Of a stretch of 64,000 bases of DNA, positions 2,614 to 64,000 are shown piece after piece. This stretch comes from an uncultured Clostridia bacterium. GTDB taxonomy: Bacteria > Bacillota > Clostridia > TANB77 > CAG-508. Under the pieces are notes generated by a model. It worked only from the letters and a program-made list of their open reading frames with translations, searched no databases and was not told the DNA's origin. Position 1 is the stretch's first letter; each line of letters opens with the position of its first letter. The DNA lies in NCBI GenBank assembly GCA_934167305.1, contig CAKPKQ010000003.1:2638-66637 (forward strand). The letters run 5' to 3'. The position numbers and the translations under genes were made by a program.

Positions 2614-2979
2614 ATGGCAAAAATTGATGAATTATTAGAAACTATCGACACTTTAACAGTTGTTGAATTAGCAGAATTAGTAAAAGGAATTGAAGAAAAA
2701 TATGGAGTATCTGCAGCAGCAGTTGCAGCACCTGCAGCAGGAGCAACAGCTGGAGCAGCTGAAGAAAAATCTTCATTTAACGTAGTATTAAAAGAAGCTG
2801 GAGCAAACAAAATCCAAGTAATTAAAGTAGTTAGAGATGCTACAGGATTAGGATTAAAAGAAGCTAAAGATTTAGTTGATGGAGCTCCAAAAACAGTTAA
2901 AGAAAACGTAGCTAAAGCAGAAGCTGAAGAATTAAAAGCTAAATTTGAAGAAGTTGGCGCTACAGTAGAATTAGCATAG
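2614..2979 (+). CDS. rplL: 50S ribosomal protein L7/L12
   Basis: 121 aa. Ala-rich hinge [20 protein letters not shown]-terminal domain [19 protein letters not shown]. Confidence 0.97.
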
Positions 2980-3001
2980 TTTTAAACTAAATAAATAATA
3001 C

Positions 3002-3058
3002 AAGAGTACTAAATTGAAGTGAGTTCTTAAATTATTTCAATCAAAGTGCTCTTTTTTT
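3002..3058 (+). terminator. Putative terminator after rplL
   Basis: AAGAGTACT (3002-3010) pairs with AGTGCTCTT (3045-3053) with one mismatch and an inner ATTGAA/TTCAAT stem. Followed by a T-run. Confidence 0.5.
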
Positions 3059-3297
3059 ATTGTATAGAAAAAATTGGTAATATAATAAGAATAAATAACC
3101 TTAAATAGTAGAAGTAACTATGTGAATATTGTGCTATATTGTATAGATAAAATGTTAAATCAGGTATTTCTCACAAAAACTACTCATTGATTAATAATTT
3201 ATAATTGACTTTAATAAATATAAGTTATAAAATAGAAAAGTAAACATATCAATTATTATGCTTACATAGTAAAAACAAAAGGAGAGTAAATTAAATA

Positions 3298-4335
3298 ATG
3301 GTAATATTATTAGATGCTATGGGTGGAGATAATGCACCAGATGCAACAATAAAAGGAGCTGTAAGAGCTATAAATCAGATTGACGCTGAAATTCTATTAA
3401 TAGGAAATAAAGATATAATAAATAAAAAAGTAAAAGAATTATATAATAAAAATGATATATCAGAAATATCATCTAAACTAAAAATATATCATACTACAGA
3501 AACAATAGAAATGGAGGATACTCCAACAGTTGCAATTAAACACAAAAAAGATTCATCGATGGTTGTAGGTTTTAATCTATTAAAAGAAGGCAAAGGAGAT
3601 GTATTTATCTCAGCAGGTAATTCAGGTGCATTACTTACAGGAGCAACATTATTAGTTGGGAGAATAAAAGGTGTAGATAGACCAGCATTAGCAGGAATTT
3701 TACCAGCATATAAGAGTCGATTAGTTCTAATGGACTGTGGTGCAAATACAAATTGCAAACCAATTAACCTTTTACAGTTTGCTCAAATGGCAAGTATATA
3801 CTTAGAAACAACAATTGGTGTAAAAAATCCAAGAGTAGGGTTATTAAACATTGGAACTGAAGAAACAAAAGGCAATGAATTAATGAAAGAGTCATATAAA
3901 TTATTAAAAGAACAAAGCAAAGATCTTGGAGTTAATTTTATTGGAAATGTTGAAGGAAGAGATGCTTTTTCTGGAAATGTTGATATTGTTGTAACAGATG
4001 GATTTACAGGAAATAATTTTTTAAAAGCAGTTGAGGGATTAGGAAAATTTGTAAAAAGAACATTATCAGAAAGTTTAAAGAAAAATTTATTATCTAAAAT
4101 AGCAGCACTTCCAAGTATGCCAGCAATAAAAAGATTTGCAAAAAGTGTAGATTATAAAGAATATGGTGGGGCTTTATTCTTAGGAGTAAAAAAACCAGTA
4201 GTAAAAGCACATGGAAGTAGTGATGAAAAATCATTTGAATTTACCATAAAACAAGCTGAACAATTTGTAAAAAATCAAGCAGTTGAAAAGCTAAAGGAGC
4301 AATTTACAAAGGAAACAGCTGAAAAAAATAATTAA
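3298..4335 (+). CDS. plsX: Phosphate acyltransferase PlsX
   Basis: 345 aa. N-terminal LLDAMGGDNAP motif typical of PlsX. Followed by acpP. Confidence 0.92.
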   Translation: MVILLDAMGGDNAPDATIKGAVRAINQIDAEILLIGNKDIINKKVKELYNKNDISEISSKLKIYHTTETIEMEDTPTVAIKHKKDSSMVVGFNLLKEGKGDVFISAGNSGALLTGATLLVGRIKGVDRPALAGILPAYKSRLVLMDCGANTNCKPINLLQFAQMASIYLETTIGVKNPRVGLLNIGTEETKGNELMKESYKLLKEQSKDLGVNFIGNVEGRDAFSGNVDIVVTDGFTGNNFLKAVEGLGKFVKRTLSESLKKNLLSKIAALPSMPAIKRFAKSVDYKEYGGALFLGVKKPVVKAHGSSDEKSFEFTIKQAEQFVKNQAVEKLKEQFTKETAEKNN

Positions 4336-17377: not shown

Positions 17378-20059
17378 ATGTGGTACACATTATCTACAAA
17401 AGAAGTAGAAAGACAAATGCAAACTAATATGGAGTTTGGATTAGATGAAAAACTGGTAGAGGACAAGCAAAAAAGGTTTGGGTTGAATAAGCTAGAAGAA
17501 AAGAAAAAAGAGAGTATAGTTATAAAATTCATAAAGCAATTTAATGATTTTATGATAATTATATTAATAATTGCCTCAATTATTTCAGCAGTAGTAGCAA
17601 AATTAGAAGGAAGCAATGATTATTTTGATTCAATTATAATAATTGCAATTGTAATATTTAATGCTATTATGGGATTAGTGCAAGAAGCAAAGGCAGAAAA
17701 ATCATTAGAAGCACTTAAAAAAATGACCGCACCAACATGTAAAGTGAAAAGAAATGGCAAAATATGCACCATAAAAAGCGAACAAGTAGTTCCAGGAGAT
17801 ATTGTATTATTAGAAGCGGGAAATTATGTGCCAGCAGATTGTAGATTAATTTCAAGCTCTAACTTAAAAATAGAAGAATCTAGCTTAACAGGTGAAACAG
17901 TACCAGTTTTAAAAGATGCTAATTGCATACTAAAAGAGAAGACAGCCTTAGGAGATATGGTAAATATGGCGTTTTCAACTACAATAGTAGTTAACGGTCA
18001 TGGAGAAGCAATTGTAACAGATACAGGAATGAACACAAAAGTAGGTAAAATTGCAAAAATGATTATTACAAATGAAGCTCCTGAAACACCAATTCAAAAG
18101 AAATTAGGAGAAGTGGGCAAGTCTTTAGGAATAGCATGTTTAGGTATTTGTTTATTAATATTTGTAATTGGACTTTTAAAGAAAATTGAACCAATAGAAA
18201 TGTTTATGACTTCAGTAGGATTAGCTGTAGCGGCAATACCAGAGGGGCTACCAGCAATAGTAACGATTATGTTATCAATTGGTGTAACAAAAATGGCAAA
18301 GAAAAACAGTATAATTAGAAAATTACCAGCAGTTGAAACCTTAGGTAGCAGTAGTGTTATATGTTCTGATAAAACAGGAACATTAACACAAAATAAAATG
18401 CAAGTTACTAAAATAGCAAATATAAATGGAGAAACTAATGATAAAGGGTACACTAAATGGTTGATGGGTATGGCTACAATGTGCACAGATGTGGAAATAT
18501 CAAGAGAAAATGGAAAAATAGAACTAACAGGAGAACCAACTGAAAAGGCAATAGTTAGCAAAGCTTTAGATGAAGGACAAAACAAAAATGAATTATATAA
18601 TGTAATGAAACGTGTAAAAGATATTCCATTTGATTCAAGTAGAAAAATGATGACAACAATTCACAAAATACCAAATGGATATAGAGTTATAACAAAGGGC
18701 GCACCAGATGTATTATTAAAAAGATGTAACAAAGTATATGAAAATGGAAATGTAACTGCATTAGATTATTCAAAAACTAAATTGATAGAAAATCAAAATA
18801 ATAAAATGGCAGATGAAGCTTTAAGAGTATTAGCAATAGCATATTTGGATATACCAAGTTTGCCAAACAAGATAGATAGTGAGAATATAGAAAAAAATCT
18901 AATCTTTATTGGATTAATAGGAATGATAGATCCACCAAGAGAAGGTGTGAAAGAGGCTGTTGCAACTTGCAAGAAAGCAGGAATAAAAACTGTAATGATT
19001 ACAGGAGATCATATAATAACAGCAAAAGCAATTGCGAAAGATTTAGGAATATTAAGAGGCAGTGATTTAGCAATTACAGGTGAAGAACTAGATAAAATAC
19101 CACAAGCTGTATTACAAAGAAACATTATGAATTATTCTGTTTTTGCAAGAGTGACACCAGAACACAAAGTTAGAATAGTTAAAGCATATCAGTCAACAGG
19201 TGCAGTAGTTGCAATGACAGGAGATGGAGTAAATGACGCACCAGCATTAAAAAATGCTGATATTGGAATTGCAATGGGAAAAAATGGCACAGATGTTGCT
19301 AAAAATGCAGCAGACATGGTTTTGACAGATGATAATTTTGTTACAATTGTTGAAGCTGTTAAACAAGGAAGAAATATATTTGATAATATAAAAAAGGCAG
19401 TACATTTTTTAATTGCAACAAATATTGGGGAAATTGTAACAATATTTTTAGGATTGCTATTAGGCTTAAAATCTCCACTTTTAGCTATTCAACTATTGTG
19501 GATAAACTTAGTAACTGATTCACTTCCAGCAATTGCTTTAGGATTAGAAAAACCAGAAGCAGATATAATGAATAAAAAACCTAGAGATAACAAAAAGGGA
19601 ATTTTTGCAGACGGACTATGGCAAAAAATAATTGCAGAGGGAATAATGTTAGGTGCTTTAACATTAGTGGCATTTAGCTTAGGAAATTATTTATATGGAA
19701 TAGAAGTTGCAAGAACAATGGCTTTTGTAAGTTTAGGACTGCTAGAATTAATCCACAGCTTTAATATAAAAAGTGAAGAATCAATATTTAAAGTAGGGTT
19801 ATTTGAAAATAAATATTTGCTAGGAGCATTTATTTTAGGAGCGATATTACAAGTGGTTGTAGTTGTAATTCCATCGGTAGCAGAAGTATTTAAACTTTTA
19901 CCATTAACTAAAGTACAATGGCTATATACATTTGGAATATCAGTATTACCGCTAATAATAATTGAATTGCAAAAAATGTTTGATAAGGTGGAAACAAAAT
20001 TTGAAAGAAAAGAATTCCAACATATTACGCAGAAAAAAAGGGAAGTACATAATACTTGA
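17378..20059 (+). CDS. Calcium-translocating P-type ATPase (SERCA/PMCA-like)
   Basis: 893 aa. Phosphorylation motif CSDKTGTLT. TGES-type TGETVP. Hinge TGDGVNDAPALK. About 10 TM segments. Confidence 0.92.
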   Translation: MWYTLSTKEVERQMQTNMEFGLDEKLVEDKQKRFGLNKLEEKKKESIVIKFIKQFNDFMIIILIIASIISAVVAKLEGSNDYFDSIIIIAIVIFNAIMGLVQEAKAEKSLEALKKMTAPTCKVKRNGKICTIKSEQVVPGDIVLLEAGNYVPADCRLISSSNLKIEESSLTGETVPVLKDANCILKEKTALGDMVNMAFSTTIVVNGHGEAIVTDTGMNTKVGKIAKMIITNEAPETPIQKKLGEVGKSLGIACLGICLLIFVIGLLKKIEPIEMFMTSVGLAVAAIPEGLPAIVTIMLSIGVTKMAKKNSIIRKLPAVETLGSSSVICSDKTGTLTQNKMQVTKIANINGETNDKGYTKWLMGMATMCTDVEISRENGKIELTGEPTEKAIVSKALDEGQNKNELYNVMKRVKDIPFDSSRKMMTTIHKIPNGYRVITKGAPDVLLKRCNKVYENGNVTALDYSKTKLIENQNNKMADEALRVLAIAYLDIPSLPNKIDSENIEKNLIFIGLIGMIDPPREGVKEAVATCKKAGIKTVMITGDHIITAKAIAKDLGILRGSDLAITGEELDKIPQAVLQRNIMNYSVFARVTPEHKVRIVKAYQSTGAVVAMTGDGVNDAPALKNADIGIAMGKNGTDVAKNAADMVLTDDNFVTIVEAVKQGRNIFDNIKKAVHFLIATNIGEIVTIFLGLLLGLKSPLLAIQLLWINLVTDSLPAIALGLEKPEADIMNKKPRDNKKGIFADGLWQKIIAEGIMLGALTLVAFSLGNYLYGIEVARTMAFVSLGLLELIHSFNIKSEESIFKVGLFENKYLLGAFILGAILQVVVVVIPSVAEVFKLLPLTKVQWLYTFGISVLPLIIIELQKMFDKVETKFERKEFQHITQKKREVHNT

Positions 20060-25764: not shown

Positions 25765-26478
25765 ATGGAAAGTTTAGAAAAAAGTATTGGTTATACATTT
25801 AAAAATAAGGAATTATTAAAAAAGGCTCTAACACACACATCTTATGCATATGAGCATCATGTAGAAAGCAATGAAAAGTTAGAGTTTTTAGGGGATAGTA
25901 TTTTAGAGTTTTTATCAAGCAAATATATATATAATAACTATCCAAAACTAAAAGAAGGAGAAATGACTAAAGTGAGAGCCGAAGTCGTATGCGAAGACAG
26001 TTTATACTTAGTTGCACAAAGACATCATTTTAGTGATTTCTTATACTTAGGAAAAAGCGAAGCAGTAAGTCATGGAGACGCTAAACCAGCTATATTAGCT
26101 GATAGTGTTGAAGCAGTTATAGCAGCAATATATTTTGATGGAGGCCTAGAAGAAGCTGAAAAATTTATTATAACAAATTTAGCAGAGGCAGTAAAACATT
26201 CTAGTGCAAATGTAGGAATGAAAGATCATAAAACGGTATTACAAGAAAAACTACAAGAAAATGGTAGTGTTCATATAAGCTATAAGGTAATAAAAACAAG
26301 TGGACCAGACCATGATAAAACATTTACAGTAGAAGTATATTGTGAAGATAAACCATTAGCTGTTGGAGAAGGAAAAACAAAAAAACAAGCGGAAATGAAA
26401 GCCGCAGAAAAAGCACTATGTCAGTTTGGGGACGTTTCTTTAACTGACAAAAGTGTCACTTCGGGGACAGATCTTTAA
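25765..26478 (+). CDS. rnc: Ribonuclease III
   Basis: 237 aa. Signature EKLEFLGDSILEF. C-terminal dsRBD (GPDHDKTFTVEV..GEGKTKKQAEMKAAEKAL). The last 19 codons lie in the palindromic repeat. Confidence 0.93.
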   Translation: MESLEKSIGYTFKNKELLKKALTHTSYAYEHHVESNEKLEFLGDSILEFLSSKYIYNNYPKLKEGEMTKVRAEVVCEDSLYLVAQRHHFSDFLYLGKSEAVSHGDAKPAILADSVEAVIAAIYFDGGLEEAEKFIITNLAEAVKHSSANVGMKDHKTVLQEKLQENGSVHISYKVIKTSGPDHDKTFTVEVYCEDKPLAVGEGKTKKQAEMKAAEKALCQFGDVSLTDKSVTSGTDL

Positions 26479-26556
26479 AGAAAAAGATGGATGTGAGGGA
26501 AGATGTGTCCCTCAACTGACAAAAATGTCAGTTAGAGAAACGTCCCCAAACTGACA
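26419..26556. repeat. Compound-palindrome element, copy A (138 bp)
   Basis: TGTCAGTTTGGGGACGTTTCTTTAACTGACA...TGTCAGTTAGAGAAACGTCCCCAAACTGACA. Homologous to 62025-62159 and 63762-63900. Confidence 0.9.
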
Positions 26557-26567
26557 AGGAGGAGAAT

Positions 26568-27638
26568 ATGAAGAAGGAGTATATTATACCAATTTTTGTT
26601 CCACATTTAGGTTGTCCTCATCAATGTACATTTTGCAATCAAAAGGAGATTAGTGGACAAACAAAACAGGTAACTGCAAAAGATGTAAAAGATACAATAG
26701 AGTTTTATTTGAAAAATTTTAAAGATGATTCTAAATATGTAGAAGTGGCTTTTTATGGTGGTAGTTTTACTGCTATTGAGGAGAATAAACAAAATGAATT
26801 ATTAGAAGCTGCCAATGAATTTATAAAAGATGGCAAAGTAAAAAGTATTAGAATTTCTACAAGACCGGATTATATTGACAAATCGATTTTAAAGAGATTA
26901 AAAAAATATCATGTTCAAACAATTGAATTAGGGGTTCAATCTACTAATGATTATATTCTTGCAAAATGTCAAAGAGGTCATACTTTTGAGGATGTTAAAA
27001 AAGCTTCGAAACTTATTAGATTTCATGGTTTTACATTAGGACATCAAATGATGATTGGATTACCTGAAAGTACAAAATTAGATGAGATTAATACAGCTAA
27101 AGAATTAATAAAATTGAAACCAAAAATTGTTAGAATTTACCCTGTACTTGTAATTAAAAATACCCCATTAGCTAAAGAGTATGAAACAGGGGATTACATA
27201 CCTTTAACAGTTGAGCAGGCTGTCGAGCGTTCTGAAGAAATAATGAAATTATTTAACAATGCTAAAATTGATGTTATAAGAATTGGACTTCAAAATACAG
27301 AGGAAATTACAGATCCAAAAGAAAAAAATAGTCAGGTAATTGCAGGTCCATATCATCCAGCTTTTAGACAACTTGTGGAATCTAGAATGTGGTATGATGA
27401 AATTGTACAAAAAATAAAGAAAATAAATACAAAGGTTATGCAAGTAACAATTAAAGCAAACCCGGAAAATGTGAATAATATTATAGGACATAAAAAAGAA
27501 AATATTTTAAAGTTAAAAGAATTTTATGATGTTGATGTGGTAATTGAGCCAGATGACAACATAAAAAAGGGAAAATTTGAAGTTATAATAGACAAAACCT
27601 ATGAAGATATTTTAGAAGAAATTAATAATAAAAAATAA
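26568..27638 (+). CDS. Radical SAM protein (ELP3-like)
   Basis: 356 aa. N-terminal CxxxCxxC cluster CPHQCTFC. AGGAGG RBS abuts the repeat. Confidence 0.8.
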   Translation: MKKEYIIPIFVPHLGCPHQCTFCNQKEISGQTKQVTAKDVKDTIEFYLKNFKDDSKYVEVAFYGGSFTAIEENKQNELLEAANEFIKDGKVKSIRISTRPDYIDKSILKRLKKYHVQTIELGVQSTNDYILAKCQRGHTFEDVKKASKLIRFHGFTLGHQMMIGLPESTKLDEINTAKELIKLKPKIVRIYPVLVIKNTPLAKEYETGDYIPLTVEQAVERSEEIMKLFNNAKIDVIRIGLQNTEEITDPKEKNSQVIAGPYHPAFRQLVESRMWYDEIVQKIKKINTKVMQVTIKANPENVNNIIGHKKENILKLKEFYDVDVVIEPDDNIKKGKFEVIIDKTYEDILEEINNKK

Positions 27639-46092: not shown

Positions 46093-46249
46093 GATGAAAT
46101 ATAATACTTTTTGTAGTGACGGCTGTGGGGACCAGCGAATTAGAAGGCGTTACTAAATTTTTTCAAATCATTAGAAATGTTTGCAAAAAATTGTTGTTAC
46201 GCCTTCTTATGAAGTAGGGATGGAACGGAAAAAAGTATTATATCTCATC
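46093..46249 (+). ncRNA. Candidate structured RNA or palindromic insert (20-bp closing stem, large asymmetric bubble, long apical helix)
   Basis: 46093-46112 pairs with 46230-46249 (19 of 20). Bubble of 29 nt versus 22 nt. Inner stem AGAAGGCGT (46142-46150) / ACGCCTTCT (46199-46207), then AATTTTTT/AAAAAATT and CAAA-CAT/ATG-TTTG. Confidence 0.3.
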
Positions 46250-56754: not shown

Positions 56755-57864
56755 TTATAATGTTGTTACTAGTAATAATACAACTAAAAATAAAGTATTA
56801 AATATTGTATACATTATTAAATATTTCCAAAAGTTTTTAGGCTGGTGTTTTAAAAATTCTTTTAAAGTAATTAAACTAGCTAGTGAAGATATCAATATTC
56901 CTAAAGAACCTATATTTACAGAAACTAATAATTCTTTATAATTTGTAGTAAATTTAGATAAGAATATTGCAGTAGGAACATTGCTTATAAATTGACAAGA
57001 CATTATTCCAGCTAACAATGTATTTTTTACAACAATTTCTGATATAAACTCTTTTATAGCAGATATTCTAGCAATATTTCCTGAAAAGACAAAGAAAACA
57101 AAGAATGTTGCTATAAGAGCATAGTCTATTTGCTTAAACCTTTTTCTATCCATTATAAGGATTGTTAAAACTACAATTGCTAATGTTATCAAATAAGGAA
57201 TAACCCTAAAAATACTAAGTATTACGAAAATAAATAAAATTGAATATATACATAGCTCTTTCTTACTTATGATTATCTTTGAATTTTTTCTTAGCTTTAA
57301 AGTTTCATTATGAACAAAAGCACAGCATATCCATAATAACACTGCAACAGTTATGGACGGAACAAGCAATATACTAAAAAACTCTGTTGTGTTTATATTA
57401 TAATAAGAATAAAGATATAAATTTTGTGGATTACCATAAGGAGTAATCATACCACCCATATTAGCAGCTATAGTTTGCATTATAAATGTAAAAGCTAGAT
57501 ATTTATCATTTTTGGTTGAATGCAAAACAATATATGTAAGCGGAAGAAATGTTATTAAAGACATATCATTTGCTACTATCATATCAAAGAAAAAGGTACC
57601 AAATACAAGTGCATATATAACAGCTCTTCGGGTATGAAATAAACCTATAAGTTTTCTAGAAATCAACTCAAATACATTTGTGCTTTTAAGTCCAGCAACT
57701 ACAGCAAGCATACAGAATAAGCAAATTAATGTACTATAATCAAAATAACCTAAATATTCTTTATCTGGTGGCACAAAAAAACATGTAATAATTGCTAAAA
57801 CGATTGCAACAGATAAAACTACTTCACTTTTTATAAAATTAATTATTTTTTCTTTTGTCTTCAT
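56755..57864 (-). CDS. ArsB/NhaD/CitMHS-superfamily anion permease
   Basis: About 10-TM hydrophobic protein. ATG 57864 follows GGAGA. Family assigned by overall pattern only. Confidence 0.6.
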   Translation of the reverse strand: MKTKEKIINFIKSEVVLSVAIVLAIITCFFVPPDKEYLGYFDYSTLICLFCMLAVVAGLKSTNVFELISRKLIGLFHTRRAVIYALVFGTFFFDMIVANDMSLITFLPLTYIVLHSTKNDKYLAFTFIMQTIAANMGGMITPYGNPQNLYLYSYYNINTTEFFSILLVPSITVAVLLWICCAFVHNETLKLRKNSKIIISKKELCIYSILFIFVILSIFRVIPYLITLAIVVLTILIMDRKRFKQIDYALIATFFVFFVFSGNIARISAIKEFISEIVVKNTLLAGIMSCQFISNVPTAIFLSKFTTNYKELLVSVNIGSLGILISSLASLITLKEFLKHQPKNFWKYLIMYTIFNTLFLVVLLLVTTL

Positions 57865-57961
57865 AATTATCTCCATATAATACTTATATAAATATTATAA
57901 CAATATAAAATAAAAAATACAATAAAAAAGATACCTTATTTCTAAGATATCTTTTTTAAAT

Positions 57962-58864
57962 TTATTTTTTATCTTTAATAACTTCTGTAATAGCACCTAA
58001 ACTACTTAAAGTATTTGTTGCTTCAAATGGAATAAATACTTTATTAGCTTCTCCATTAGCAACTTCTTTTAAAGTCTCTAAAGATTTTAATTGAACTAAT
58101 TTTTCATCAGGTTTAGCTTTCATCATTGCATCATAAACCATATGAATTTCTTGAGCTTTTGCTTCAGCAACTTGTTTTATAGCTTCGGCCTCACCAATTG
58201 CTCTTCTTATTTTAGCTTCTTTATCAGCTTCAGCCTCTAAAATAGCAGCTTCTTTTTTACCTTCTGCTAAAGTAATAGCAGATTGTCTTTCACCTTCAGC
58301 TTGTAAAATTAAAGCTCTTTTATTTCTCTCAGCATTCATTTGTTTTTCCATTGCATCTCTAATGTCTGCTGGAGGAGTAATATCTTTAATTTCAACTCTA
58401 TCGACTTTACAACCCCATTGATCTGTTGCTTCATCAAGAATAACTCTTAATCTATCATTGATAGCATCTCTAGAACTAAATGTATCATCTAAGTCCATTT
58501 TACCAACAATATCACGAATTGTTGTAATTGCTAAGTATTCAATACCTTTCTTTAAGTTTTGAATTTCATAAACAGCTCTTGCTGGATCTGTAATTTTGTA
58601 AAACACAACAGTATCAATAGTAATAGTAACATTATCTTGAGTAATAACACCTTGAGGTGGAATGTCCATTGTTTGTTGTTTTAAACTAACAACACTACGT
58701 ACATGATCTACAAAAGGAATAATAACTGTAAGACCTGCATCAGCTACTTTGTGAAATTTACCAAGTCTTTCAATAATGTAAACTTCAGATTGTTTTACTA
58801 TTTTAATTGTATTAAATGCAATAATTAAAATAATAACTAATAATGCGATTAAAACCCACATCAT
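57962..58864 (-). CDS. SPFH/Band-7 (stomatin-like) protein
   Basis: 300 aa. N-terminal TM, SPFH core, Ala/Glu-rich coiled tail. Paired with NfeD upstream. Confidence 0.9.
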   Translation of the reverse strand: MMWVLIALLVIILIIAFNTIKIVKQSEVYIIERLGKFHKVADAGLTVIIPFVDHVRSVVSLKQQTMDIPPQGVITQDNVTITIDTVVFYKITDPARAVYEIQNLKKGIEYLAITTIRDIVGKMDLDDTFSSRDAINDRLRVILDEATDQWGCKVDRVEIKDITPPADIRDAMEKQMNAERNKRALILQAEGERQSAITLAEGKKEAAILEAEADKEAKIRRAIGEAEAIKQVAEAKAQEIHMVYDAMMKAKPDEKLVQLKSLETLKEVANGEANKVFIPFEATNTLSSLGAITEVIKDKK

Positions 58865-60768: not shown

Positions 60769-62025
60769 ATGGAAAATGTAATAGGTTTAGTAATGGCAGC
60801 AGGAACAGATAACAGAATGAAATCTAAGAAATCAAAACTAGCACAAGAATTATATGGAAAGGCTGTTATAAAAAGAGTTGTTGACAGCATGAAAAAAGCT
60901 GGAATAGAAGAAGTTGCAGTTATTGTTGGAGACAACAAAGAAGAGATAGAAGGCATTTTAAAAGATGAAGTAACATATTTAGAACAAAAAGGTTGCTTAG
61001 GAACAGGCCATGCAATAATGCAAGCAACAAGTTACTTAGAAAGTAAAAAAGGAAGAGTAGTAATTGCAAATGGAAACATACCATTAATTACACCAGAAAC
61101 CATTAAAGAATTGGTAGAAAAATCAGAAAAAGAAAATGAGGCAGTTACAATACTTACAGGAATTATAAGTGAACCAACAGGTTATGGAAGAGTTATTAGA
61201 GAGAATAATAGAATTACAGAAGTCATAGAAGAAAAAGAACTAACAGAAGCAGGAAAGAAAATATTAGAAGTAAATGCAGGAGTATACTGTTATGAAATTT
61301 CTGAATTAACAAAAATAATTGGAACATTAAGAAAAAACAGCATGGGACTATATTATTTAACAGATACTGTTAAAATGCTAGTTGCATCAGGAAAAAATGT
61401 TGGAGGAGTCTTAGTAGAAGACAACACAGAAATATTGAGTCTTAATACAAAACTTCAACTAGAAATGTTAACAAGAATTTTAAGAATAAAAATCAACACA
61501 ATGCATATGAACAATGGTGTAACAATAGAAGACATCAACACAACATATATATATGAAGATGTAGAAATTGGAATGGACACAGTAATTCATCCAAACACAA
61601 CAATCAAATCTGGAGTAGTAATAGGAGAAGACTGCAACATTGGACCAAATGCATATATTCGTGAAGGATGTAAACTAGCAGACAAAGTAAAAGTAGGAAG
61701 CTTTGTAGAAATTAAAAAAGCAATTATTGCAGAAGGCTCTAAAGTACCACACTTATCATATATGGGCGACTGTGAAATAGGAACAAAATGCAATATTGGA
61801 TGTGGAACAATCACATGTAATTACGACGGAAAAAATAAACACAAAACTAAAATTGGAGATAACTGCTTCATAGGCTCAAATGTAAACTTAGTAGCACCAG
61901 TAACATTAGGCGACCATGTATTAGTAGCAGCAGGATCAACAATCACACAAGATGTACCATCAGAAGCACTAAGCATAGCAAGAGAAAGACAAACAAACAA
62001 AGAAGAATGGAACAAAAATAAATAA
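60769..62025 (+). CDS. glmU: GlmU-like nucleotidyltransferase / left-handed beta-helix acetyltransferase (atypical N-terminal motif)
   Basis: 418 aa. N-terminal MAAGTDNRMKS (canonical is LAAGKGTRM). C-terminal hexapeptide repeats. Confidence 0.75.
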   Translation: MENVIGLVMAAGTDNRMKSKKSKLAQELYGKAVIKRVVDSMKKAGIEEVAVIVGDNKEEIEGILKDEVTYLEQKGCLGTGHAIMQATSYLESKKGRVVIANGNIPLITPETIKELVEKSEKENEAVTILTGIISEPTGYGRVIRENNRITEVIEEKELTEAGKKILEVNAGVYCYEISELTKIIGTLRKNSMGLYYLTDTVKMLVASGKNVGGVLVEDNTEILSLNTKLQLEMLTRILRIKINTMHMNNGVTIEDINTTYIYEDVEIGMDTVIHPNTTIKSGVVIGEDCNIGPNAYIREGCKLADKVKVGSFVEIKKAIIAEGSKVPHLSYMGDCEIGTKCNIGCGTITCNYDGKNKHKTKIGDNCFIGSNVNLVAPVTLGDHVLVAAGSTITQDVPSEALSIARERQTNKEEWNKNK

Positions 62026-62159
62026 TGTCAGTTTGGGGACGTTTCTTTAACTGACAAAAATGTCACTTAGGGGACAGATCTTAAAAAGTTAAAACACTTA
62101 AAAGATCTGTCCCCCAACTGTCAAAAGCGTCAGTTAAAGAAACGTCCCCAAACTGACAT
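62025..62159. repeat. Compound-palindrome element, copy B (135 bp)
   Basis: Shares its first base with the glmU-like TAA and its last base with the stop of the convergent holin-like gene. Confidence 0.92.
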
Positions 62160-62530
62160 TATTGTTGGTCGCCAGGTATAAAGTAATCTACAACACCGTA
62201 AACTATTGCGCCAACTATTGCAGCCATCCAAGAAACTGTATACCCTGCAACAAAATATTGAGTTACATACAATACAACTGCAGATAGAACAAAACCGACA
62301 AAACCTTTACCAAAAGAACTAGCATGTAATCCAGTAAACTTAGTAATTAAGTAATCAATAACAGTAAGAACGATTGCAGCCATAGCTAAAGCCCAAAAGT
62401 TACTTATTCTAAATCCAGGTGTAAAAAATGCTGTAATACCAAGAACAATTGCAGCTGTGACCAATCTACCAATAATTTGCCATGCTGTACTTTTAGTATT
62501 AGATTGTGTATTAGTATTTGCGTTTGACAT
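62159..62530 (-). CDS. Phage-holin-4_2 (DUF360)-family small membrane protein
   Basis: 123 aa. Four TMs with the GRLVTAAIVLGITAFFTPGF pattern. Confidence 0.7.
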   Translation of the reverse strand: MSNANTNTQSNTKSTAWQIIGRLVTAAIVLGITAFFTPGFRISNFWALAMAAIVLTVIDYLITKFTGLHASSFGKGFVGFVLSAVVLYVTQYFVAGYTVSWMAAIVGAIVYGVVDYFIPGDQQ

Positions 62531-63372: not shown

Positions 63373-63762
63373 ATGTATAAAGAATTAATTATTATAATTA
63401 TAATAATAGCATTGGTTATAGTAGGAAATATTATAACCCAAAATAATACAAATAAATCGGTAGAGGCTATAAATGATGAACTCAAAATATTCAGAGAGGA
63501 AATTTTAAAACAAACTATCAGCAAAACAGAAATAGAAGAACATATAAAAAAAATAAATAATACATGGGAAGAAAAGTTTGAGAAATTAGCATATTATATT
63601 GAACATGATGAATTAGAAAAAGCAAGTTCAGAACTAACAAAATTAAAAGCAGATGTTGAAACAGAAAACTATGACTTTGCAATAGAAAATTTAGACAACT
63701 GTGTATTTATATTAGAACACATAAAAGACAAATCAGCCTTAAAAATAGTAAACATATTTTAA
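63373..63762 (+). CDS. DUF4363-like protein
   Basis: 129 aa with an N-terminal TM. Usual partner downstream of DUF421. Confidence 0.65.
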   Translation: MYKELIIIIIIIALVIVGNIITQNNTNKSVEAINDELKIFREEILKQTISKTEIEEHIKKINNTWEEKFEKLAYYIEHDELEKASSELTKLKADVETENYDFAIENLDNCVFILEHIKDKSALKIVNIF

Positions 63763-63900
63763 TGTCAGTTCGGGGACGTTTCTTTAACTGACAAAAATGT
63801 CACTTGGGGGACACATCTTAAAAATATAAATTAAAAAAATGAAAGATGTGTCCCCTGACTGACAAAAATGTCAGTTAAAGAAACGTCCCCGAACTGACAT
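63762..63900. repeat. Compound-palindrome element, copy C (139 bp)
   Basis: Starts on the last A of the DUF4363 TAA. Its right arm supplies the last ~8 codons and the stop of dapB. Confidence 0.92.
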
Positions 63901-64000
63901 AATAACCTGCGGGTTGGGATACTATGAACTCTGCTGCTTTTAATGCTCCTTCAGCAAAGATACTACGAGAATATGCAGTGTGCTTTACTTCAAAGCTTTC
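63875..64000 (-). CDS. dapB: 4-hydroxy-tetrahydrodipicolinate reductase DapB, C-terminal fragment (5' end outside window)
   Basis: Not in the track. The minus strand reads ESFEVKHTAYSRSIFAEGALKAAEFIVSQPAGYYVSSGTFL*. HxAxSRxxFAxGALxAA is the DapB C-terminal signature. Confidence 0.7.
   Translation of the reverse strand, partial: ESFEVKHTAYSRSIFAEGALKAAEFIVSQPAGYYVSSGTFL

Follow-up and report, generated by a model that had tools for sequence, protein, structure and literature searches.

TIRYT/TIRtron repeats, the described repeats closest to the family presented here, are defined by the motif GGGGWSAS (Di Nocera et al. 2013, PMC3733652). The TIRYT enzymes have been equated with subclass 2.1 of the TnpA-Y1 transposases (Quentin et al. 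2018, PMC6006769) and with RAYT Group 1 (Bertels et al. 2017, PMC5581495), and their published mark is a C-terminal HTH of the Bac_DnaA_C, HTH_23 or HTH_28 type (PMC3733652, PMC6006769). Subclass 2.1 is reported to be the second largest class of Y1 HUH enzymes, and its DNA substrates are poorly defined; no REP-like hairpins were described beside subclass 2.1 genes (Quentin et al. 2018, PMC6006769). RAYT Group 1 has been reported in Clostridia, which are also the hosts of the present family, and no Firmicute repeat family of the TIRtron/TIRYT type is described in the class literature searched. The family described below adds a new member to a class of bacterial repeat that is already known; it does not represent a novel kind of system.

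The window analysed here, a stretch of 64 kb, contains a hairpin-repeat family of three copies of 133-138 nt each, referred to as copies A, B and C (Table 1). Their conserved cores lie where the first-pass annotation had placed three near-identical elements, and its reading of them as a dispersed, compound-palindromic family that is not CRISPR-like was upheld. The arms of these unlinked copies are 88-96% identical. A motif of the TGTCA(G/C)TT(N)GGGGAC type had been proposed to occur four times per element, and TGTCASTTNGGGGAC, with up to two mismatches, was indeed found 12 times, four times per copy, compared with 0.14 occurrences expected. Likewise, TGTCAGTT occurs 12 times (2.4 expected), every time within the copies. 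A search of the window with nhmmer at maximum sensitivity recovered exactly the six arms and no further remnant of the repeat outside the three copies. Copy B folds very stably, both as RNA (-80.9 kcal/mol, z = -16.7) and as DNA (-49.4 kcal/mol, z = -15.5), and its palindrome gains one further pair from A62025 and T62159. Additional copies, empty sites in relatives (see below) and a stable fold were thus all found.

Table 1. Positions of the three repeat copies, of the parts of copy B and of adjoining gene features in the window.
Feature	Position	Strand	Details
Copy A	26419-26556	+	138 nt; full doublet: left arm, 24-nt variable centre, right arm; A-linkers on + strand
Copy B (focal)	62026-62158	+	133 nt
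Copy C	63763-63899	+	137 nt
Copy B, outer-left unit	62026-62056	+	8-mer TGTCAGTT (62026-33); 15-nt segment (62034-48); complementary 8-mer AACTGACA (62049-56)
Copy B, box within the outer-left 15-nt segment	62035-47	+	GGGGACGTTTCTT
Copy B, left A-linker	62057-62060	+	AAAA
Copy B, inner-left unit	62061-62082	+	TGTCACTT-A-GGGGACAGATCTT
Copy B, variable centre	62083-62101	.	19 nt
Copy B, inner-right unit	62102-62123	-	reverse complement TGACAGTT-G-GGGGACAGATCTT; pairs with inner-left unit
Copy B, right linker and outer-right unit	62124-62158	+	linker AAAG; CGTCAGTT-N15-AACTGACA
glmU stop	62023-62025	+	TAA; ORF end 62025
Holin-like gene stop	62159-62161	-	TTA, convergent; ORF end 62159
RNase III gene	25765-26478	+	from ORF list; TIGR02191, 246.7 bits
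SD and radical-SAM gene	26557-27638	+	SD AGGAGG 26557-26562; ATG 26568
dapB stop codon	63875-63877	-	inside right arm of copy C

Each copy consists of two units of ~35 nt on each side of a variable centre, which is the sole part that differs freely in an alignment of the three copies. The order within a unit is an 8-mer, a GGGGAC box, a complementary 8-mer and an A-linker, and the three-part description of the arms given earlier was correct. As single-stranded DNA, the outer-left unit of copy B folds into a hairpin whose 8-bp stem encloses a loop of 15 nt (-4.8 kcal/mol). An alternative hairpin at the junction between the units spans 62049-62068 (AACTGACA-AAAA-TGTCACTT). The terminal hairpin and this junction hairpin, with its loop of 3-4 nt, share one 8-mer and are mutually exclusive; one lineage (L061) keeps both candidates, and in another (L047) a slight preference for the junction hairpin shows in just one arm out of three. 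The 8-mer pairs covary (CTGACA/TGTCAG, TGGTTGA/TCAACCA, TGCCA/TGGCA).

The two arms are not equivalent: the left one combines the AAAA linker with the inner 8-mer TGTCACTT, and the right one has TGTCAGTY as its inner 8-mer. The first-pass annotation was right to place A-runs on the + strand as the short spacers of both arms, and the linkers are likewise A-runs on the same strand in all nine full doublets found elsewhere. The element therefore has a polarity, as do the ends of IS200/IS605-type elements. The right linker together with the outer-right unit corresponds to the 35-nt unit that varies in number among strains elsewhere. The GGGGAC-containing motif forms the best-conserved columns across lineages, and the suggestion that it is a protein-recognition site is plausible; the MAFFT alignment sets the lineages out of register. 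Every inner unit carries GGGGACAG or GGGGACAC, the former being located at 62070-62077 in the inner-left unit of copy B, and this inner box, GGGGACA[C/G], fits GGGGWSAS.

The copies are tightly fitted to genes. Copy B fills the entire interval between the convergent stops of glmU and the holin-like gene; as had been stated, these 133 nt are wholly element and leave no free intergenic base. The broader claim that the family occupies gene-end gaps holds for copy B but needs refining for the other two, and copy A is not located in a gap. The RNase III ORF runs 60 nt into copy A and ends on the element's own TAA (26476-26478), its last 20 codons and its stop being derived from the element; in relatives with an empty site, the native RNase III C-terminus reads ...EKLA*. 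On the other side, the SD of the radical-SAM gene begins at the first base beyond the right terminus of copy A. Copy C, located between a DUF4363 gene (stop TAA at 63760-63762) and convergent dapB (identified from Pfam), holds the dapB stop, and the element supplies the last seven codons of dapB (VSSGTFL).

The same arms, inverted, flank a single gene in related uncultured gut Clostridia, which encodes a Y1_Tnp protein of 256-266 aa. In L032, a unit at 2641-3630 encloses a 262-aa ORF between arms whose outer termini both point inward. The arms also flank the gene in inverted orientation in L043, L044, L047 and L066-L073, and they are found on its downstream side only in L045. The L032 ORF matches Pfam Y1_Tnp with 52.8 bits (cut-off 23), and its best NCBIfam model is that of the REP-associated tyrosine transposase, with 67.1 bits, below the model cut-off of 80. 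Homologs of this transposase were found in a number of 238. The HUH and Y---NP motifs are intact: H68, H70 and Y127 (RYIHxNP) do not vary among 34 homologs, and a C-terminal HTH segment (QLARILG..R.IYRA) is conserved. All 34 match Y1_Tnp, 12 match HTH_23, 8 match HTH_29 and 4 match HTH_28; in member 1, all HTH matches fall below the Pfam cut-off. The AF2 model of the enzyme (pLDDT 87) has helices at 201-261, and its best PDB fold is 4ER8, E. coli TnpA_REP in complex with a REP hairpin (E = 5.9e-7, TM 0.72). A single-sequence search against solved structures gave no match for the transposase, and the profile-to-PDB match to 4ER8 was weak (E = 0.54); the comparison of folds decided the matter.

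The transposase gene occupies a conserved slot, GH15 - transposase - radA - disA, an order shared by three lineages and by 8/8 strains of one species. Transposase identities of 67, 58 and 52% track those of RadA (92, 79 and 78%), and the sequence of the flanking arms changes along with the enzyme across lineages. Judged from this shared slot and from divergence that tracks the neighbours, the transposase is a single-copy, vertically inherited gene. No tnpB was found beside it. As the first-pass annotation had noted, no transposase lies nearby: the window and ~8 kb beyond it hold no Y1 gene, RadA, DisA and GH15 are absent from the window, and we infer the existence of a cognate enzyme in the window's organism.

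No described family, whether of repeats or of MITEs, was found to have the sequence of this repeat. The Rfam search proposed earlier matched no family (Rfam 15, gathering threshold, 0 matches in the window), and permissive thresholds gave only sub-threshold long-hairpin look-alikes of miRNA precursors. The repeat had no match in viral contigs, phage records or plasmid records, and a literature search for its sequence found no paper. The first-pass remark that it is of no named repeat type therefore stands at the level of the family but not at that of the class, since its arms flank a RAYT-like Y1 gene and carry a GGGGWSAS box. On the combination of this motif with the HTH, the best reading of the enzyme is that it belongs to the RAYT Group 1 / subclass 2.1 / TIRYT type. 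As in TIRtron/TIRYT systems, long inverted repeats with GGGGWSAS border a gene for a RAYT-like Y1 enzyme that has the HUH and Y---NP motifs and, at its C-terminus, an HTH like HTH_23/HTH_28; the repeats overlap the ends of neighbouring genes and are dispersed in moderate numbers as singles, dimers and clusters. By contrast with subclass 2.1 as presented by Quentin et al., the arms are clearly built of units whose 8-mer stems covary; their left and right ends differ, their A-linkers lie on the same strand, and the number of units varies. The family thus offers this class a structured candidate substrate, in which the stems covary around an unvarying GGGGAC box, together with distinct ends that give it a strand polarity and natural variation (empty sites, decayed copies, whole-unit indels) in abundant human-gut Clostridia, which makes binding and cleavage directly testable.

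Several likenesses extend to the REPIN-RAYT systems and to the REP/BIME repeats of E. coli (Bertels & Rainey 2011, PMC3116915): inverted doublets able to form one long hairpin, a Y1 gene that is single-copy, inherited vertically and bordered by the same repeats, an extragenic location at gene ends and retention at orthologous sites. The mosaic, variable-number arrangement resembles that of BIMEs, and the enzyme is closest in structure to TnpA_REP. However, the GTAG or CGTC head of REP/REPIN is absent, a GGGGAC box between complementary 8-mers being found instead. Whereas REP is a tight palindrome of 20-40 nt, the present unit has two possible forms, a stem of 8 bp with the box in a 15-nt loop, or a stem of 5-8 bp closed by a loop of 3-4 nt. 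In addition, the enzyme has an HTH domain that TnpA_REP does not have, and the host, unlike those of REPIN-RAYT systems, is a low-GC Firmicute. With IS200/IS605 elements and their gene-less derivatives (PATEs), the family shares HUH/Y1 chemistry, the absence of target duplication and distinct left and right hairpin ends on the same strand. It differs from them in having one gene copy at a conserved chromosomal slot rather than many copies, no tnpB, an enzyme that scores only 28.8 bits against NCBIfam IS200 (cut-off 55), and short derivatives that greatly outnumber the gene. Finally, BOX, RUP and Correia/NEMIS elements are also small, modular, hairpin-forming and intergenic and at times extend ORFs, but they show no sequence similarity to the present family, which has neither their duplications nor their link to a DDE transposase.

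The family was found at 32 metagenome loci and at 4 loci of MAG CALXQF01, as doublets, solo arms and larger compounds, and the contigs of sample ERZ827512, which represent one metagenomic genome, carry at least 17 sites. Site A is empty in three relatives (L049-L055); at this position 22 nt present in the relatives have given way to the element, and there is no clean insertion. A 97% relative (L065) has site A without the outermost 35-nt unit on the right. Three lineages have a copy at site B, with stems still able to pair: a sister species (L056) has a decayed copy, and L061, whose DUF421 protein is 85% identical, has a lineage-specific variant. At site C, the sister species keeps only a degenerate single unit of 31 nt, and L061 has no copy. 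On the right flank of the transposase gene, 0, 1 or 2 units are present depending on the strain. No target-site duplication was detected at the flanks of ~50 unique termini, and no consensus target among them. A match of L026 to positions 46099-46248 of the window was considered as synteny, which would have supplied an extra empty site, and was rejected, being an isolated conserved non-coding stretch.

We consider it probable, at roughly three chances in four, that the copies are REPIN-like non-autonomous doublets that owe their mobility or maintenance to a RAYT Group 1 / TIRYT enzyme acting in trans. A doublet would correspond to the left and right ends of a Y1 (HUH) transposase unit placed head to head, with the gene missing. 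The Y1 enzyme would recognise the hairpins on one strand while this is single-stranded, for instance at replication forks, and the GGGGAC box may guide the enzyme or help to determine its binding, perhaps through the C-terminal HTH. Cleavage and rejoining by the enzyme would then disperse, maintain or trim units in trans. Copies would survive only where they are harmless, in the few bases between a stop and an SD or between convergent stops; at gene 3' ends, they would be tolerated because they carry stops in all three frames within 60 nt. Any activity as a terminator, RNA stabiliser or RNase III site would be a by-product. Several points temper this reading, among them the lack of a Y1 gene in the window and ~8 kb beyond it, the replacement of 22 nt at site A, the RAYT model score below its cut-off, the weak profile match to 4ER8 and the published absence of REP-like hairpins beside subclass 2.1 genes. 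The gain and loss of units could be due to enzyme-free replication slippage between 8-mer repeats. The lack of target-site duplications and of a consensus target fits Y1 chemistry, yet it is no positive footprint of transposition. Finally, the occupancy of site B in three lineages could equally reflect long persistence, a hotspot or activity.

A host-integrated variant, which we regard as unlikely, would be a vertically inherited system in which the Y1 enzyme adds or removes 35-nt units on one strand at operon junctions, the arrays that end at SDs and stops serving to tune termination, RNase III processing or translation. If true, it would give RAYT Group 1 / subclass 2.1 a functional role beyond that of a tolerated parasite.

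Also of low probability is a host-selected RNA element, whether a terminator, a stabiliser of 3' or 5' ends or an RNase III site, that punctuates operons and has a merely secondary link to the Y1 enzyme. Besides the very stable RNA fold and the retention of pairing stems at site B in three lineages, this idea draws on the location of the copies at gene 3' ends and just upstream of SDs. An SD with its start codon lies 0-5 nt from 13/51 unique termini, compared with 1.5% of control positions, and a TAA precedes 9/51; in line with the preferred idea of doublets served in trans, we take this adjacency to mean that copies have survived in very short spacers at gene ends, and do not regard it as proof of a target. 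The A-linkers also lie on the purine-rich, mostly sense strand at 30 of 37 junctions. Strict polarity relative to transcription was nevertheless rejected, solo arms being found in both orientations, and the ~80% bias towards the purine-rich strand that remains is inseparable from replication direction on short contigs. Also against an RNA element are the lack of an Rfam family, the dispensability of sites A and C in close relatives and the absence of any terminator-like call at the three copies, most strands having no T-tract after the hairpin (the scan, limited to ≤20 pairs and loops of 3-8, is weak for so long a hairpin). Moreover, an RNA function leaves unexplained why the same two ends flank a Y1 gene and diverge with it.

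Of similarly low probability is the view that the copies are inert relics, whose units spread or shrink only by slippage or recombination between the 8-mers, and that the Y1 protein has been domesticated for another task and has ceased to act on the copies. The whole-unit indels of 35 nt do end in direct repeats, the sister-species copies are decayed, and the single-copy Y1 gene keeps its synteny and its vertical inheritance. However, slippage cannot seed unlinked loci, of which a single metagenomic genome has at least 17, and this view is also opposed by the 88-96% identity between unlinked arms of the window and by a catalytic HUH and tyrosine that are invariant in 34 homologs.

If each element were an array of sites that a host protein, for example a nucleoid or a regulatory factor, binds on double-stranded DNA, this would account for four GGGGAC boxes per element at a fixed spacing of 35 nt and for their being the most conserved columns across lineages, but it is very improbable: no candidate host factor was found, and the sites are dispensable between close relatives. 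The best candidate binder would be the C-terminal HTH of the transposase itself, and the idea thereby folds into the preferred one of doublets served in trans by the Y1 enzyme. A classical MITE of DDE-type insertion-sequence origin, moved by cut-and-paste, which the long inverted arms, small size, intergenic location and presence/absence polymorphism might suggest, is hardly credible given ~50 termini without target-site duplication, ends that are not true inverted repeats (same-strand linkers, differing inner 8-mers) and a Y1 HUH enzyme as the only gene found between such arms.

The family also accounts for several oddities of annotation and assembly in these genomes. These include unusual C-terminal extensions of RNase III, DapB and GH15, 'free' intergenic spaces of zero length, and assembly breaks, many of the transposase homologs being located on contigs of ~1 kb.

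The three hairpin-repeat elements of the window (copies A, B, and C) are best explained as REPIN-like doublets that combine both ends of a RAYT Group 1/TIRYT unit. The repeat family is real and lies where the first-pass annotation had placed it (see the table), and the 15-nt motif TGTCASTTNGGGGAC, which had been counted four times per element, does occur four times in each copy, giving 12 occurrences in the window against 0.14 expected. All 12 occurrences of TGTCAGTT in the window (2.4 expected) also fall inside the copies, and a sensitive nhmmer scan of the window returned six arms in total and no further arm remnants. Copy B folds far more stably than its shuffles, both as RNA (-80.9 kcal/mol, z = -16.7) and as DNA (-49.4 kcal/mol, z = -15.5).

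Coordinates of the repeat copies and of a strain-variable gene, with the arm types by lineage
Feature	Position	Remark
Copy A	window 26419-26556	
Copy B	window 62026-62158	A62025 and T62159 form one further pair
Copy C	window 63763-63899	
Band_7 change	L002 7090-8053; L004 4525-5603	orthologous to window ~56755-58864
Arm type, window		GGGGACGTTTCTT with CTGACA/TGTCAG stems
Arm type, L043		GGGGACGTTCCTT
Arm type, L047		TGCCA/TGGCA
Arm type, L061		TGGTTGA/TCAACCA

Each arm consists of two direct units of ~35 nt. In the outer unit, an 8-mer is followed by a 15-nt segment with the box GGGGACGTTTCTT, then by the complementary 8-mer, and last by a 4-nt linker. The inner unit opens likewise (TGTCACTT-n-GGGGACAsATCTT), and the opposite arm provides its closing 8-mer. 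With this layout, a strand can fold as a single long hairpin, as three tandem hairpins with linkers between them, or as small junction hairpins (AACTGACA-AAAA-TGTCAsTT). The element falls short of a true palindrome: the linkers are A-runs, both on the same strand, in 9/9 distinct doublets, and the inner 8-mer is TGTCACTT in the left arm and TGTCAGTY in the right arm, which gives it distinct left and right ends as well as a strand polarity. With respect to the surrounding genes, polarity is only a bias, since 30 of 37 junctions have the A-linker on the purine-rich strand and solo arms are found in both orientations; either replication or transcription may be its cause.

In relatives, such arms flank a transposase gene. 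At L032, one of the related loci, two arms facing each other (outer termini 2641 and 3630) enclose a 262-aa ORF that matches Pfam Y1_Tnp with 52.8 bits (cut-off 23); its best NCBIfam model is 'REP-associated tyrosine transposase' (67.1 bits, under the cut-off of 80), and the NCBIfam IS200 model gives only 28.8 bits. Its 238 homologs (250-290 aa) are all from uncultured Clostridia, many of them on ~1-kb contigs, as expected if the repeats break assemblies on either side. An alignment of 34 diverse members shows conservation of the HUH histidines, of the RYIHxNP tyrosine, and of a C-terminal HTH; all 34 match Y1_Tnp, with 12 matching HTH_23, 8 HTH_29, and 4 HTH_28. An AlphaFold model (pLDDT 87) is closest to 4ER8, the E. 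coli TnpA_REP-REP hairpin complex (E = 5.9e-7, TM 0.72), followed by IS608 and ISDra2 TnpA. The Y1 enzyme would act in trans on hairpins in single-stranded DNA, and the window's own genome probably encodes such a transposase.

The transposase gene occupies a fixed locus, with a GH15 gene on one side and radA-disA on the other, in three lineages (L032, L043, and L047) and in 8/8 strains of one species, including contig NODE_6 of sample ERZ827512 and NCBI MAG GCA_902495695.1; in another lineage it lies between an S4-domain gene and dnaE. The reading frame of the GH15 gene continues into the left arm, the stop codon of the transposase and the right inner box overlap, and the radA Shine-Dalgarno sequence (SD) stands directly at the right terminus in every lineage. 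The right flank carries 0, 1, or 2 outer units depending on the strain and always ends in ACTGACA followed directly by AAGGAG. Pairwise identities of the transposase (67, 58, and 52%) follow the order of those of RadA (92, 79, and 78%) and DisA (95, 84, and 83%), as vertical descent would predict. Arm sequence varies along with the enzyme across lineages, with the GGGAC core invariant in all four tabulated arm types. About 5 kb downstream of this locus, a block begins in the ERZ827512 strain (L072 15783-20771) that stands in place of the genes carried there by seven other strains. Its first genes encode a phage-type integrase, a repressor-like Peptidase_S24 protein, and small HTH proteins, and it resembles a prophage or integrative element specific to that strain.

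RAYT-like genes with long inverted repeats on either side have been described as 'TIRtrons' and their enzyme as 'TIRYT'; many of these repeats have GGGGWSAS in common, and their families, of moderate abundance, include singles, dimers, and clusters (Di Nocera et al. PMC3733652). TIRYT enzymes are equated with TnpA-Y1 subclass 2.1, which corresponds to RAYT Group 1 and is characterized by a C-terminal Bac_DnaA_C/HTH_23/HTH_28 domain and a Y---NP motif, and no REP-like hairpins were found adjoining subclass 2.1 genes (Quentin et al. PMC6006769). Group 1 is reported to occur in Clostridia, where the 16-mers that flank it are low in abundance (Bertels et al. PMC5581495). The inner box of the window copies, GGGGACA(C/G), fits GGGGWSAS exactly, and the relatives' enzyme has the architecture expected of TIRYT/subclass 2.1. 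In the literature searched, the term TIRYT appears only in PMC3733652 and PMC6006769, and no paper was found to contain the repeat sequence. The hairpins, the structure of the units, and the occurrence in a Clostridial host provide useful detail on this under-studied class.

The insertion sites are polymorphic. Site A, between rnc and a radical SAM gene, is vacant in three relatives (radical SAM protein 89, 84, and 81% identical), in which rnc ends in ...EKLA and a stop, with 7 nt between this stop and the SD; these 22 nt of the relatives are replaced by the element in the window. A 97% relative (L065) has the site A element minus exactly the right outer unit. At site C, a sister species (DUF421 96% identity) has one degenerate 31-nt unit, and an 85% relative has none there. 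Site B is occupied in all three lineages compared: the sister copy is decayed (76% identity versus 88-92% for the flanking genes), and that of L061 is the lineage's own variant. Empty sites, raised by the first-pass annotation, were thus found. No target-site duplication, and no target consensus, is visible at the element termini.

The earlier view that the copies fill gaps at gene ends to the nucleotide holds for copy B, where the last base of glmU is 62025 and the convergent holin-like ORF ends at 62159, so that the intergenic interval is element throughout. It needs refining for copy A, into which the RNase III ORF (25765-26478) extends 60 nt to stop at a TAA of the element, and for copy C, whose right arm contains the dapB stop (63875-63877, minus strand). 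The SD of the gene after copy A (AGGAGG) begins at the first base past the element. The native dapB C-terminus in relatives (...GYYVS or ...GYYTS) already codes for TATGTCAG-like sequence (L056 11078-11108 versus window 63763-63909), which resembles the terminal TGTCAG of the element; the right boundary of copy C may therefore sit in pre-existing similar sequence, which hints at microhomology or a terminus-like target. An SD with start codon begins 0-5 nt from 13 of 51 unique outer termini, versus 1.5% of non-ORF control positions, the control being crude and some sites orthologous, and TAA precedes 9 of the 51. We read this as persistence of copies in very short spacers at gene ends, where they are harmless partly because translation in any frame reaches a stop codon no more than 60 nt from the terminus.

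The window has a GC content of 29%, and its glmU protein is present in human-gut metagenome contigs (Hadza and others); these same-species strains have both copy B and copy C, each at its window site. Among species-representative genomes, the motif was found only in MAG CALXQF01, an 'uncultured Clostridia bacterium', with the same units in another arrangement. A metagenome scan yielded 32 loci, nearly all from human gut, of which only L016 belongs to the window's species. They comprise doublets, 236- and 404-nt compounds, and numerous solo arms (57-63 nt), nearly all of which are right ends. A more distant variant of the family occurs in another related species (L064 7038-7336), with units TTGCCAYYGGGGACGGACCTTTT direct and inverted; its 8-mers are very unlike TGTCAGTT, and the GGGGAC box is again the conserved part.

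Other features of the window were also noted. No Rfam family reaches its gathering score in positions 1-64000, and ARAGORN finds no tRNA or tmRNA in the whole 64 kb; an L10 leader might be expected at the ribosomal-protein cluster near the window start (L11, L1, L10, L7/L12), yet none matches at gathering score. The non-coding segment 46099-46248, between two + strand ORFs, shares 86.7% identity over 150 nt with L026 6681-6829, which belongs to a different species and whose flanks show no synteny. A long, imperfect inverted repeat (AGAAGGCGTTAC ... GTTACGCCTTCT) lies within the segment. Rfam gives no match to it even at E = 1, and it is not a tRNA; it could be a small RNA or a regulatory element not yet described. 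The Band_7 (SPFH) gene beside nfeD is split or shortened in two same-species strains (L002 and L004) compared with the window and L001. About 7 kb past the window end, L001 encodes a YefM/YoeB-type toxin-antitoxin pair (18582-19096), after which some strains have a WG-repeat gene and another ORF inserted that are missing from others (L001 versus L002).
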